DNA of 60,268 nucleotides, counting the filler, from Globobulimina sp. (taxonomy: Eukaryota): the NCBI GenBank assembly GCA_003354225.1. It is 12 parts of 12 records of this genome, joined end to end, with 100 filler letters (N's around TTAATTAATTAA, not from the genome) between each part and the next. Parts side by side here need not be neighbours in the genome. Positions count along the whole stretch, not along the records: positions 45,307 to 50,229 come from PIVH01000840.1; 11 more parts are not named here. One strand, 5' to 3'. Under the pieces are notes generated by a model that made no database searches, was not told where the DNA came from, and was given only the letters and a program-made list of their open reading frames with translations. This document shows, one piece after another, positions 43,860 through 60,268 of the stretch. The translations under genes were made by a program, and so were the position numbers. Numbering within the stretch: position 1 is the stretch's first letter; the number at the start of each line of letters is the position of its first letter.

Positions 43860-44861
43860 ATGTCAACTAAATGTATTACTATTATGATTTTAAACATTTT
43901 ATCAATGAGTACCTGCAGTAACATGAGCCTAGTAATAGGTTCAGATGATTTATCAACTCACATCTATCAATGGTTACCATTAAGTGAATTAGTAAACAAA
44001 TATTTAAATCCGGAAAACATTCGTTTTAAGAAAGTTGCAGAGTATGTACTGAAACAAAGAGATTCAGAAACTGTAAATAATACCATACACTCTCACGATT
44101 ACACAAGATTAATAAATGCATTTATGAGAGAAGAAAAACAAAACGGTACAATTGGCTGTGCAGCAAAAAGATTAAAGTTTGATCAGAATTTGAAAAAACA
44201 AATCAAAACAACATATTCAAACATGATTTGTCCAATGATTAGAGAAAGAATAGAATGCAAGAGGTTCGGTTGGTTTTTAATATTAATTATAAACAAGAAA
44301 ACGTTTTTAAATCAAGATTTGTTACAATATTTGGAAATTGCTGACCGTACATTTAAAATTCCAATATTATCTGTCGTTGAATTAGAAGGTAATAATTTAG
44401 ATTCATTACAAAAGTTTTTATTTCAACGTACTGTATATTTATCAATTGCGGATAATAAGTTTACGCGATTAGATCATGACACATTTGGTATGCCATTCTC
44501 TTTGGGGCAGGTTGATGTTTCTAATAATCCAATTCAAGGAGCTATTGATTTCAATGCATGCAATTCTACTCTTACAATGACAGTGTTTTTTACTATGAAG
44601 GGGTGCAAATATGTCACAAGACTTGTAAACATACCCAATGCATTGCAAAATCTTAACATTTTTGATTCAGGGATTACATCGCCAGATCAATTAATATTTG
44701 AAAATGAAATTGGGTTAATATCTATTACAACCAATCGGAATCAAACAAAACAATGGAAAACGTTTTTCCTTCAAAATGGCACAGATGTGCGGGTTTGTGA
44801 TTATGGGCTGGATTCTGATGTAGTAACTATATATATTTATGCCAGCATTTGGGTCTGTTAA
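43860..44861 (+). CDS. Leucine-rich repeat protein, putative signal peptide
   Basis: LEGNNLDSL, LSIADNKF, VDVSNNPI and LNIFDSGI. Paralogous to 59474..60268. Confidence 0.8.
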   Translation: MSTKCITIMILNILSMSTCSNMSLVIGSDDLSTHIYQWLPLSELVNKYLNPENIRFKKVAEYVLKQRDSETVNNTIHSHDYTRLINAFMREEKQNGTIGCAAKRLKFDQNLKKQIKTTYSNMICPMIRERIECKRFGWFLILIINKKTFLNQDLLQYLEIADRTFKIPILSVVELEGNNLDSLQKFLFQRTVYLSIADNKFTRLDHDTFGMPFSLGQVDVSNNPIQGAIDFNACNSTLTMTVFFTMKGCKYVTRLVNIPNALQNLNIFDSGITSPDQLIFENEIGLISITTNRNQTKQWKTFFLQNGTDVRVCDYGLDSDVVTIYIYASIWVC

Positions 44862-45206: not shown

Positions 45207-45422
45207 NNNNNNNNNNNNNNNNNNNNNNNNNNNNNNNNNNNNNNNNNNNNTTAATTAATTAANNNNNNNNNNNNNNNNNNNNNNNNNNNNNNNNNNNNNN
45301 NNNNNNAGATGTTTCGTATGTACACCGCTATCGTAGTTTAAAAATCCAATCTCGGCTAGAAGTGACTGTAAAAGTGACATGCTTTCAAATGTTAAGCCTC
45401 CGAACTTAAATGGCAGTAGTCA

Positions 45423-45830
45423 ATTAAGGCGGCGAGAATAAGAAAAGCAAAGCTGTCATATATTCAGGCGGCGAGTATCTAGCATATAATTGTCGCTTAG
45501 CTCAAGAAGAGCACTGAGCACTGGAATGGATGGACATGTCCAGAAGATTCAGGTGCAAATACTGAGGCGATCCCAAAGACCCAAACCAAATAAAAAGGAA
45601 TTATTTAATTGATTGGGAATTAAAAATGGTAAATGGATGAAAAAGGATTGATTGAATTGGATGGATTGAGAGGAGAAATAAAGAAAAAAATAGTTTTGGA
45701 TGAATTTGATGAAAATGAAATGTTTGATGGTTTTGATGATGGCGTATTGTATGGCCATCATCACCATCACAAACCACACAAAATGACAAACATTTTCATT
45801 TTTTGTTTTGTTTTGTGCGTTTTGTTTTGT
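45423..45830 (+). mobile_element. tRNA-related SINE-like element, left copy (2 hairpin units, tRNA-like module 45491..45571, conserved tail 45739..45830)
   Basis: TAGCTCAAGAAGAGC (A-box-like) and GGTGCAAATAC (degenerate B box). The modules are shared with the opposite-strand copy. Confidence 0.6.
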
Positions 45831-45991
45831 CAGATCTTATCCTTGCACAAATAAAAAATGTCTGTTGATGTATCAATTAACAAACTCAAATAAAATCACA
45901 TAAAAACGCACAAAACGCACAAAACAAAAAATTAAAATGTTTGTCATTTTGTGTGGTTTGTGATGGTGAAGATGTCCATACAATACGCCAT
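45739..45991. repeat. Long inverted repeat (~85-bp arms, ~75-nt spacer)
   Basis: ATGGCGTATTGTATGGCCATCATCACCATCACAAACCACACAAAATGACAAACATTTT at 45739 and its reverse complement ending at 45991, with 3 mismatches in the first ~70 nt. Confidence 0.95.
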
Positions 45992-46133
45992 TTCTCGACG
46001 CCTTAATATATAACGGCTTTTCCTTTCTCATTCTCACCGCCTTAATATATGGCGGATTCTTTCTCATTATCGCCGTCTTAATATATGACGGGATTCTTTC
46101 TCATTATCGCCGCCTTAATACGTGACGGCATTG
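45991..46133. repeat. Four tandem 33-37 bp units, each containing a stem-loop
   Basis: Units start at 45991, 46024, 46060 and 46097. Consensus TTTCTCATT(A/C)TCGCCGCCTTAATATATGRCGG-ATTC. Confidence 0.92.
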
Positions 46134-46155
46134 CATCCCATCCAAATCGATATCG

Positions 46156-46222
46156 CTGTCGCCTCAGGATTTGAACCTGAATCTTCTGGATTAATCCAGT
46201 GCTCTGCTTGAGCTATGCGGTC
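46156..46222 (-). pseudogene. tRNA-like cloverleaf with 4-nt anticodon loop and broken acceptor stem
   Basis: Paired D, anticodon and T stems with a canonical GGTTCAAATCC B box. No 7-nt anticodon loop and no GG in the D loop. Confidence 0.75.
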
Positions 46223-46622
46223 ATATGTACAAATGTATTAATTAATGGTGAGATATTTATTATAAAATGTAATGGTTAAATTCATATAAAAAACCAATAC
46301 GAACACCAATATAACATCTCTCGTTGCGATAATATTGAATGGATCCATCATTTAGATGACGTGTTTGAGGTGTTTCTCATTTCTAATTTTATACTATCGC
46401 TTAATTAATTGTGGAGTTCGACCATGCGACTCTAGCAAAGGACTGTGTCGTTGAGTGCCATGACGAAAGCAAAATGTTATGTTTCTAATGACAAAAGTTT
46501 TTTTTTCTTCAATTATCAAAGCGTTCATTGAAGAAATGAACTAAAAGCAAAAACCCTATTATGTATTAAAATCATCTGCCTTAGCTTCAAATTAAAAAAA
46601 CTTTTACTCCGCTGTGTAAACC

Positions 46623-48438
46623 ATGCAATACGACTCTTTAGTAATATCAATCGCATTGATTGGCATTGGCGAATTGCTTTTGATATCAGTATTCTGGTTC
46701 GTCCATTTAAAAAAATACAAAAACAACCCAATTTACCATATCAGAAATATAAATTTTTGGATGTTATCAATATTAACTTCTGCTGTTGCTTTCACGACAA
46801 GAGCTATCATGACATATTTTAGAGCTAATGGTTATATCTCAAAACAGCTATTCTTTATTATATCAACATTTATTGTAATAATGATAGGTTTTAGTTTTGA
46901 TTTTGGAAGGTTTGTAAATTAATAACTTTCGTGTGTTTTTAAACAACAACAACAAAATTACAGAGTGTTATTTCTATGGTATTCACTTAAATTACAGCGT
47001 TTTGAACAGGATTCATTTCTTAAAAAGCATTTATATGGAAAACAAAGGGATATATCAAAAACGCCTTTTCTATATAGAAACGCAAACTTTTTTGGTAAAC
47101 CAAGCAGAGCATTCATGGTATTAGAAATCTGGATGTTTTTCTTTTGGATTGCATACACATTAACTATTCTAATCGCTGATGATTTCGAGTTGGCGAACAA
47201 GATTCTTTCATTCTCATTAACATTTTTAATGATTCCTGTGCTTATATTAGTATTTCAGTTATGGTGTTACAACCAAAGCTCCGTTAAAAGTATCAAAAAA
47301 CAGAATAAAAATTCAGATTCTGCTGAGCTAGCGCTGTATGCATATAATACCACATTCCGCGACGTATTTCGGTTCAGATTAGAAATTACTTTATTTTTAG
47401 TTATGTTTGTTATAATATTACCAGGAGTTGCTATATTGCAACAGAAATATGACCTTACTGTCATCGACGAAGACGGTATATATGCAATAGTTATATTTAG
47501 TTTACTTGAATCCATTTCAAATACAATCAGTATCTTTATACAAGTGTTCATTCCTTATTTGACATTCAAACAAAACATATCTAAATTCCATCAGGCAGAC
47601 ACTACAAATTCATCAATCTCTTTATTGGATGTATTATCTCAAAAATACAGCTTTTTTCTATTTATTGAGCAGTTAGTTCAGGTATATAATTATATATAAT
47701 ATATGCGAATTAATTGATATGTTTCCATGTTTTCAGGAATTGTCTTTTGAAAATTTATCATTTTTGATTGAAGTGTATCAGTTTAAGAATATAACAAAGG
47801 ATATGCTCAAACGTAGAGAGAAAAGGCGACAAATTAAACAAAGTCAGATATCGATGTCTATGAAAAATGAAGAAATAAAGGAAACTGAAGTCAGCGCACA
47901 AAGTGTGACTGATGAGTTTTCAGCAACATTTCTAAGCTCACCACATTCCATAAATTCTAAAATGAGCGGATACTCTCAATATTCGCAACAAATAAATGGT
48001 GCAGATTCCCTTTATTTTTCTCAAATATTATGTAGATTTCCGTGGAGAGGGTTGCCATTAACTGATACCATTGTCAATTCAACAGATTTTAATAAAATGA
48101 ACCAAGCACAAAATATCTATGATAAGTATATCAATGAGACATCGTATTATGCGATAAATATTAAAGGGAGCGCATTTGATGAGGTATATAACAGAATGAA
48201 TGAATTAAAATTATGGAAAGCTGTGAGAATGAATGAAGAAGAGATTGTTTACGAACAAAACGCTGTGAAATCGGAAACTGACTTAGAAATGGAATGCATT
48301 AAAACAGAATACGAATGGAATGAGGCGATGCTAAAAGTGTTTGATTATGCATTGCCAGATATATTTCAAAATTTAGAAGACTCCATGATGAGGTTCCGTA
48401 AAACGGAACAATTTTTATTGTTGATTGGGTCGCAATAA
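46623..48438 (+). CDS. 7TM-RGS protein (seven TM helices fused to a regulator of G-protein signalling domain), 3 exons
   Basis: Seven hydrophobic segments, then FIEQLVQ|ELSFENLSFLIEV, AQNIYDKYI, AINI and VFD...LEDSMMRF. Introns 46910..46963 and 47682..47736. Confidence 0.88.
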
Positions 48439-59473: not shown

Positions 59474-60268
59474 TTAAATAACAGTCATTAATATTTCCCC
59501 GACACATTGTGTAGTAACACGCACTTTTCTGCCATTTTCACGGAAAAAAGTTTCCCACAGTAACAGTTTTGATTGGTTACGATTCATTTTAACAGATTGT
59601 AATCCAATGCCATTCTCAAATTCTAATTGATTTGGCGATGTAATCCCTGAATCAATAATGTTAAGAAAGTGTAATGTTTTGGGTATGTTTACCAGTCTTG
59701 TTACAAATTTACATTCTGTCATAACAAAGTACTTTGCCATTGTGAGAGTAGCATTGCATGCCTTGAAATCAATAACTCCTTGGATTGGATTATTAGAAAT
59801 ATCAACATACTGCAAAGCGAATGGCAGACCAAATGTTACCTCATCTAACCGCGTAAACTGATTATTAGCAATGAATAAATATTCAATACCATCAAATAAA
59901 AACTGTTGTAATGAATCTAAATTATTATCTTCTAAATTAACATCAATGAATGCTGGAATTTTAAATGCATTGTCAGCAATTTCCAAATATTGCAACAGCT
60001 CTTGATTTAAATACGTTTTATTGTTTAATGCTAAATAATGCCCACCGGACCTCTGATATTTTATTATTTCTCTATTAATCATTGGACCGATCATGTTTGA
60101 ATATGTTGTTTTTATTTGTTTTTTGAAATTCTGATCAAAATCTAATCTGTTTGCGGTGCGTGCAATTGTTCCATTTTCTTTTTCTTTTTCTTGGCTCATA
60201 AATGCATTTATTAATCTTCCATAATCGTCTGAGTGTATTGTATTATTTGCAGTTCCTAAATCTCTTTG
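59474..60268 (-). CDS. Leucine-rich repeat protein, paralog of 43860..44861 (5'-truncated)
   Basis: Shared blocks KKQIKTTYSNMI, LLQYLEIAD, NNLDSLQ, SNNPIQG, VTRLVNIP, DSGITSP and FENxIGL. Confidence 0.85.
   Translation of the reverse strand, partial: QRDLGTANNTIHSDDYGRLINAFMSQEKEKENGTIARTANRLDFDQNFKKQIKTTYSNMIGPMINREIIKYQRSGGHYLALNNKTYLNQELLQYLEIADNAFKIPAFIDVNLEDNNLDSLQQFLFDGIEYLFIANNQFTRLDEVTFGLPFALQYVDISNNPIQGVIDFKACNATLTMAKYFVMTECKFVTRLVNIPKTLHFLNIIDSGITSPNQLEFENGIGLQSVKMNRNQSKLLLWETFFRENGRKVRVTTQCVGEILMTVI

Follow-up and report, generated by a model that had tools for sequence, protein, structure and literature searches.

Layout of the locus

The window, that is, the whole 60,268-nt stretch of Globobulimina sp. 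DNA analysed here, consists of ~5-kb contigs strung together with N linkers, and was drawn from an assembly of an AT-rich eukaryote (70 Mb, 48,370 contigs). The locus of interest (45307–46560) sits on contig G000:C840, which begins at window position 45307. It opens with the type A end of a second, nested Harbinger/Pangu-like element (45307–45422, minus strand). The last ~33 nt of this segment match the end preceding a PF13359 gene at locus L151, the rest of the element lies off the contig, and depth in sequencing run X1 is high. The ATT that follows (45423–45425, plus) is the target of this nested insertion within a 37-mer repeat, ~1.5 units of which remain as an array remnant (45423–45475, plus; 85% identity over 53 nt to the array on the right). 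The left arm then comprises a tRNA-like module of subtype tB with a long anticodon loop and a damaged B box (45491–45573, plus), an A/G-rich spacer of the kind typical of tB arms, here in a shortened form (45574–45738, plus), and a tail with T runs (45739–45829, plus; first T6 at 45799).

An asymmetric conserved centre (45829–45895, plus; 10 matches on 10 contigs) separates this tail from its inverted copy (45891–45991, minus; 92% identity over 89 nt). The right arm continues with a 37-bp tandem array (45992–46132, minus; 44 genome candidates, 40 scored), in which TRF found 3.7 copies at 45995–46132, the linker found after tA in type A elements (46126–46155, minus), and a second tRNA-like module, of subtype tA, with a 4-nt loop, an intact B box and its first bases replaced (46156–46222, minus). 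Beyond it lie a decayed 5′ fragment of a host gene of the triose-phosphate-transporter family (46219–46452, minus; 82% identity to G000:C32428, frame matching PF03151, E = 3.5e−19), an inward-facing type C transposon end that is probably the right boundary of the composite (46448–46557, minus; 191 candidates, 40 scored), and an ATT read directly from the sequence (46558–46560, plus; minus-strand AAT), which would be one of the two copies of the 3-bp target duplication expected here. The two tRNA-like modules on opposite strands, the inverted tails and the 37-bp repeats reported by an earlier, sequence-only reading of this DNA are all present. The 800-nt stretch folded with a z score of −14 relative to 20 shuffles, mainly due to the tails. 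Similarity of the tails to miRNA families in Rfam (MIR5998, 47 bits; gathering threshold 180) was rejected, as it reflects the inverted repeat only.

The modules are subtypes of one high-copy tRNA-like family

The two modules are different subtypes (right tA, left tB) of one high-copy family. Searches of the organism's own genome returned 291 tA and 125 tB candidates, 40 of which were scored for each, and the sequence-only reading was right that the family is multicopy and modular, has undergone recombination and carries tRNA-like modules of Pol III type. The Rfam tRNA model (RF00005) matched the right module at 33.6 bits (gathering threshold 29; E = 3.2e−4); the left module was absent from Rfam matches at E ≤ 10, and ARAGORN called zero tRNAs in the window. 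Parsing anchored on the D-arm and T-loop motifs recovered 94 copies from the fetched loci, of which 92 were counted; the rows left out were L155, without stems, and L177, a real further subtype. At least seven subtypes were distinguished by their stems, with D-arm words common to all.

Two structural claims of the sequence-only reading did not survive comparison between copies. The anticodon loop, said to be a 4-nt palindrome in both modules, has this length only in the right subtype: tA carries a 4-nt loop in 30/33 copies, the whole arm being perfectly palindromic in just 12/33. The loops of tB range from 7 to 26 nt (13 nt in 16/37 copies), with a CATG-centred palindrome lying off-register, within the loop, in 2/37. 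The left copy itself has a local duplication in the anticodon arm and two B box changes. Likewise, the 7-bp acceptor stem was put together from copies of two different subtypes. Within a single copy the stem is 6 bp long, pair 1:72 being paired in 17/85 unique cores and mismatched in most. The 5′ strand of the right copy is spoiled, since its first four bases have been replaced by, and coincide with, the last four of the transporter-gene fragment. The B box is intact in 27/33 tA and 33/37 tB copies, though not in the left copy, and the D-loop GG of a full A box is missing from both subtypes.

Pairing across 78 unique cores was strong: the Watson–Crick fraction reached 0.96 in the T stem (≤0.23 when slid) and 0.76 in acceptor pairs 2–7 (slid, ≤0.29), the copies being related, so that neither these counts nor the T-run counts given below are independent events. 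Two-sided changes were found even within subtypes. Of 33 tA copies, 19 have T-A and 12 have A-T at one T-stem pair, and one acceptor pair of tC is G-C in two and A-T in seven of nine. Because the stems covary while the anticodon loop drifts, these data suggest that the fold has been maintained. The loop is free in length and the module therefore cannot decode. Together with the missing 7-nt anticodon loop, 7-bp acceptor stem and D-loop GG, and the blank ARAGORN result, a functional tRNA gene was rejected.

No close donor was found among the 24 host tRNA genes compared (63/4,169 candidates scored). Amongst the loci examined, L177 (740–803) and L138 carry a further subtype, whose 7-bp acceptor stem is perfect and in which the two copies differ by one two-sided change; L177 scored 49.7 bits against the Rfam tRNA model. 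Genes for tRNA-Thr(CGT) were strikingly common among the top-scoring tRNA loci (L201, L202, L212–L214, L218, L220). Five loci (L197, L199, L200, L204, L216) hold tRNA genes with an encoded CCA end; these look bacterial or organellar, and the assembly may include such DNA.

Tail, centre and arms form a recurrent fold-back

The tail was found on 17 contigs, five of them with two inverted copies and 13 entering the same asymmetric centre. Searching with the centre added five further contigs; in 4/5 the centre was followed by an inverted tail, and two of those four reach an inverted tB. As this tail–centre–tail layout recurs across contigs, the two arms together make up the inside of a fold-back subfamily and do not represent insertions that occurred independently. 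One subfamily is a long fold-back of the order module–spacer–tail–centre–tail–spacer–module. The usual type A order is tA–linker–37-mers, as on the right arm. The module order that had been described as shuffled resolves mostly into two families in their usual order, namely tA–linker–37-mers–tail-like and tB–spacer–tail.

Modules lie just inside transposon ends

The DNA upstream of the modules was shared with another locus in 52/61 copies with at least 50 nt of flank, all taken from loci fetched with module queries. This shared sequence stops ~140–210 nt from the module at sharp ends of the form AWT^AG. An inward-facing end was recognised within 350 nt of the module in 19/40 copies with at least 300 nt of flank, compared to 2/312 control windows; ends in the wrong orientation were found near modules in 1/40, and 21/40 long-flank copies had no recognised end within this distance. 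A first, looser end pattern had matched 33/234 control windows, and the tightened pattern gave the same 19/40. The distance from end to module was 186–206 nt in 12/13 type A cases, 143–173 nt for type B and 142–176 nt for type C, and the same end type can front different module subtypes. Nine of the 61 copies had no shared upstream flank in the blast test; most of them, judged by eye, are junctions, deletions or diverged subterminal DNA.

These ends fall into three high-copy types (A, 282 candidates; B, 108; C, 191). The AWT^AG form (AAT or ATT, then AG) was present at 38/48 type B and 32/36 type C ends, whilst type A ends read ATT^AG in 45/65 and AAT^TG in 10/65, ratios biased upward by the flanking bases contained in the end queries. 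For type A, one end begins with TG, and the two forms are what would be expected of two unlike ends around an ATT duplication. Stronger evidence than these ratios comes from the target duplications themselves: a direct 3-bp AAT/ATT duplication flanked 5/5 complete type B/C elements (four pairs found by script, and L061 by eye). The cloverleaf lies inside four of these five elements, one being without a module, and in 3/4 it faces inward, at 134–210 nt. For type A, none of the 16 pairs found with the loose pattern had a duplication, and no complete element was found. At L095, L040 and L177, type A ends have inserted into ATT sites of tC modules, in two cases at an identical position, so that these elements nest in one another.

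Since the upstream DNA is common to 52/61 copies and stops at sharp ends, the tRNA-like modules are not SINE heads. The elements lack two defining SINE features, a start at the 5′ end of the tRNA and a SINE-type 3′ end, namely a simple repeat or A tail with unique flank and a variable duplication; here the ends lie 140–210 nt upstream of the module, and the tail enters the conserved centre in 13/17 contigs. The duplication is a fixed 3-bp AWT at terminal inverted repeat (TIR) ends, unlike that of a SINE. A comparison of the tail with LINE sequence gave no match to the one LINE contig of the window beyond low-complexity sequence elsewhere; that contig (25603–28570) encodes a LINE-type reverse transcriptase (PF00078, E = 2.5e−29) with a frame break and, by eye, a downstream RNase H-like frame. 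Helitrons, which end in TC...CTRR, leave the target unduplicated and have a Rep/helicase partner, were also rejected, as the ends here are inverted repeats with a 3-bp duplication and the modules had no match in 15 Helitron_like_N loci. The genome does hold at least 23 Helitron_like_N matches (including L074–L088), which are unrelated to the modules.

The ends are linked to a DDE_Tnp_4 transposase

The genome contains 38 matches to PF13359 (DDE_Tnp_4), and 30 of these loci were fetched. In 4/30 (L161, L166, L170, L171) the PF13359 gene is preceded by a type B end of matching orientation, and in 1/30 (L151) by a type A-like end; Pfam confirmed the transposase frames of the end-linked genes. No transposase was seen alongside type C ends. 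In some type B copies the end leads into the DDE_Tnp_4 gene, and in others it leads into the first codons of that gene and then into the tRNA-like module. Because the subterminal stretch before tB matches these first codons, the tB elements appear to be internal-deletion derivatives, which would have been moved in trans by the transposase. None of the transposase-bearing copies is a full-length autonomous element, which in Pangu would also carry a second ORF, and they had no tRNA-like module in the available sequence, their 3′ ends being mostly missing. The undescribed SINE or structured ncRNA family proposed by the sequence-only reading is not supported, as the module is internal and the ends with 3-bp duplications adjoin transposase genes.

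According to Han et al. 2015, the Pangu group of PHIS transposons makes ANT duplications and has ends starting AG or GG; it includes ATT and AWT families, and the group is recorded from plants, fungi, animals, and some algae and oomycetes (PMC4482050). The present elements resemble it in their 3-bp ANT (often AWT/ATT) duplication, AG-starting ends, short terminal inverted repeats and DDE_Tnp_4 transposase, and differ in their tRNA-like modules, none being mentioned in that paper's account of Pangu. The end and target signature fits this group, judged on sequence features. Pangu transposases fall in a clade next to IS5; a search with the L148 protein returned six unnamed relatives.

The copy in the window is a mosaic

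On the left, the type A end and ATT of another element interrupt the 37-mer array at 45423, and loose ends at this position in run X1 continue as uninterrupted 37-mer, that is, the empty-site form. The 37-mer-to-tB junction recurs at L032, where five 37-mer units precede tB. On the right, tA is preceded upstream by the 234-nt transporter-gene fragment, then by the type C end and the ATT at 46558–46560. The junction between this end and the gene fragment recurs at L227 with another flank and target, which suggests that the composite has moved. Amongst the sequencing-run contigs none spans the whole stretch, so that some chance of misassembly is left, and the copy was assigned by its parts because it lacks a matched pair of ends. 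Nested insertion into AWT sites, with recombination at shared motifs, may have built the mosaic, which would comprise a tB arm on the left and a tA arm, gene fragment and type C end on the right. The left module copy is probably dead, and the locus as a whole (45423–46560) is a broken mosaic without sign of a function of its own.

Depth over tA in run X1 was ~8,400 (24,000 at one base) compared to 12 on the neighbouring gene, a ratio that is not a copy number. A metagenome scan gave five matches, four with the same modules at 88–98% identity and one chance-like; these show no wider spread, since they may come from the same or a close organism.

Interpretation and alternative explanations

We consider it probable (roughly three in four) that the stretch represents the interior, now decayed and chimeric, of a non-autonomous cut-and-paste PHIS (PIF/Harbinger-like) element with Pangu-type ends and target. 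On their sequence features, the elements would behave as MITE or fold-back derivatives of Pangu-like PHIS transposons. Two tRNA-headed SINEs lying tail to tail and spread by retrotransposition would give the same look of head, body and T-rich tail, with mostly intact B boxes (27/33 tA, 33/37 tB) and few T runs in the body; a LINE-type reverse transcriptase is encoded on another window contig, and 9/61 copies had no shared upstream flank. Such an origin is nonetheless improbable, given that the other 52 share upstream DNA ending at TIR-type ends, that most of the nine are explained by eye, that the tail runs into the conserved centre in 13/17 contigs and that the region had no match to the window's LINE contig beyond low-complexity sequence elsewhere. 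It is quite improbable, too, that assembly or amplification of near-identical repeats produced the mosaic or the fold-back artificially. The fragmentation of the assembly (48,370 contigs), the many copies at contig ends and the lack of a run contig spanning the stretch would allow it; against this, the arms are unlike each other (tails 92% identical, modules of different subtypes), the asymmetric centre between them is conserved across many contigs, and both the 37-mer-to-tB junction (L032) and the end-to-gene-fragment junction (L227) recur elsewhere with different flanks. We give hardly any credence to a pair of host structured ncRNA genes with a cellular function. A kept cloverleaf with a free anticodon loop is what such genes might show, yet there are hundreds of dispersed candidates inside transposon ends, and this locus is truncated and chimeric with a damaged left B box.

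As to what the module does, within the transposon reading we lean, by a little more than an even chance, towards a Pol III/TFIIIC unit that faces inward and has been retained by the non-autonomous elements, and that would be predicted to produce a short RNA stopping at the T runs of the tail, and which would either help the transposon ends or hitchhike with them. In the 100-nt stretches that follow the modules, T5 runs are rare (11 in 71 windows from related copies; control, 0.48 per window), and on both arms the first T6 lies in the tail, about 220–230 nt downstream of the module. The main rival to this proposal also accepts a transposon and departs from it solely in what the module does: the modules would be separate small retro-elements or tRNA pseudogenes, captured repeatedly inside transposon ends, passive and functionless now. 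This has perhaps one chance in three, in words a serious though less favoured account, to which the seven or more subtypes with different stems, the occurrence of different subtypes behind the same end type and the complete element without a module all lend weight; covariation between subtypes could also come from different donor tRNAs. Repeated passive capture accounts less well for the two-sided changes within subtypes (tA T stem, tC acceptor), the D-arm words common to all subtypes, the lack of a close donor among the 24 host tRNAs compared, and the inward orientation in 3/4 complete elements at 134–210 nt. A bolder possibility, which we regard as unlikely, is that a Pangu-like lineage domesticated a tRNA mimic, with an inward cloverleaf that is under RNA-level selection in several families, is transcribed by Pol III or processed by RNase P/Z, and serves the element. 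If true, the mimic might keep the ends open for the transposase, or might cleave read-through transcripts before silencing double-stranded RNA can form from the fold-back arms, and it would be the DNA-transposon counterpart of the 5S module of Cassandra.

Relation to known systems

Foldback-type elements and Pack-type capture are known for long modular inverted arms with tandem repeats and for a host gene fragment beside an end. The elements described here share the modular inverted arms, the tandem repeats and the host gene fragment by an end, and differ in having Pangu-like ends and tRNA-like modules in the arms. The tRNA mimics mascRNA and menRNA, which RNase P and Z cut, belong to long RNAs of vertebrates and are single-copy; as in these, acceptor and T arms are kept, the D loop is shrunken and the anticodon arm is non-decoding, whereas the modules here are multicopy and known from sequence alone. 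The tRNA-derived SINEs (SINE2) are outlined as having a head/body/tail structure (PMC5786205). With this outline the elements share a tRNA-like module with A/B-box-like words, a body and a T-rich stretch; they depart from it in that the module is internal, the element does not end in the tail, comparison with the one LINE of the window gave no LINE-derived tail and a fixed 3-bp AWT flanks TIR ends. The closest conceptual analogue is Cassandra with its 5S module, summarised as an LTR retroelement that carries 5S rDNA and needs an RNA copy (bioRxiv 10.1101/2023.07.14.548913). It, too, is non-autonomous and has a module derived from a Pol III gene in or near its terminal repeats, whereas the elements here would move as DNA, with no obvious need for a transcript. 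DINE-1, considered as a precedent, lacks tRNA similarity (PMC2374699).

What is unusual is that a tRNA-like fold has been retained close to the ends, on their inner side, in several cut-and-paste transposon families here. Should selection act on this fold, a DNA transposon that lacks an RNA step would be employing either a Pol III site or a tRNA-like RNA. In the literature searched (titles and abstract openings, few subscription journals), no tRNA-like modules inside PHIS or other TIR ends were found, and nothing on a fold-back origin of MITEs. New here are the transposase link, the target duplication and the fold-back of the tRNA-module family. Because such tRNA-shaped units are internal parts of cut-and-paste elements, genomes of this kind will yield inflated tRNA counts and SINE calls.

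Neighbouring sequence

To the right of the locus, a multi-exon gene (46580–48438) encodes a hydrophobic, membrane-like part followed by a weak RGS match (E = 6e−5, just under the cut-off), and is possibly a membrane–RGS fusion, as far as domain matches indicate. Within it, a 54-nt GT..AG stretch (46908–46961) is skipped in contigs of runs X2, X3 and X4 and kept in X1; since this is a spliced intron of the gene, these three runs hold cDNA-derived contigs. Elsewhere in the window, two 462-nt stretches on different contigs (44290–44751 and 59566–60027) are 82% alike in opposite orientation, and are probably paralogous genes or another repeat.
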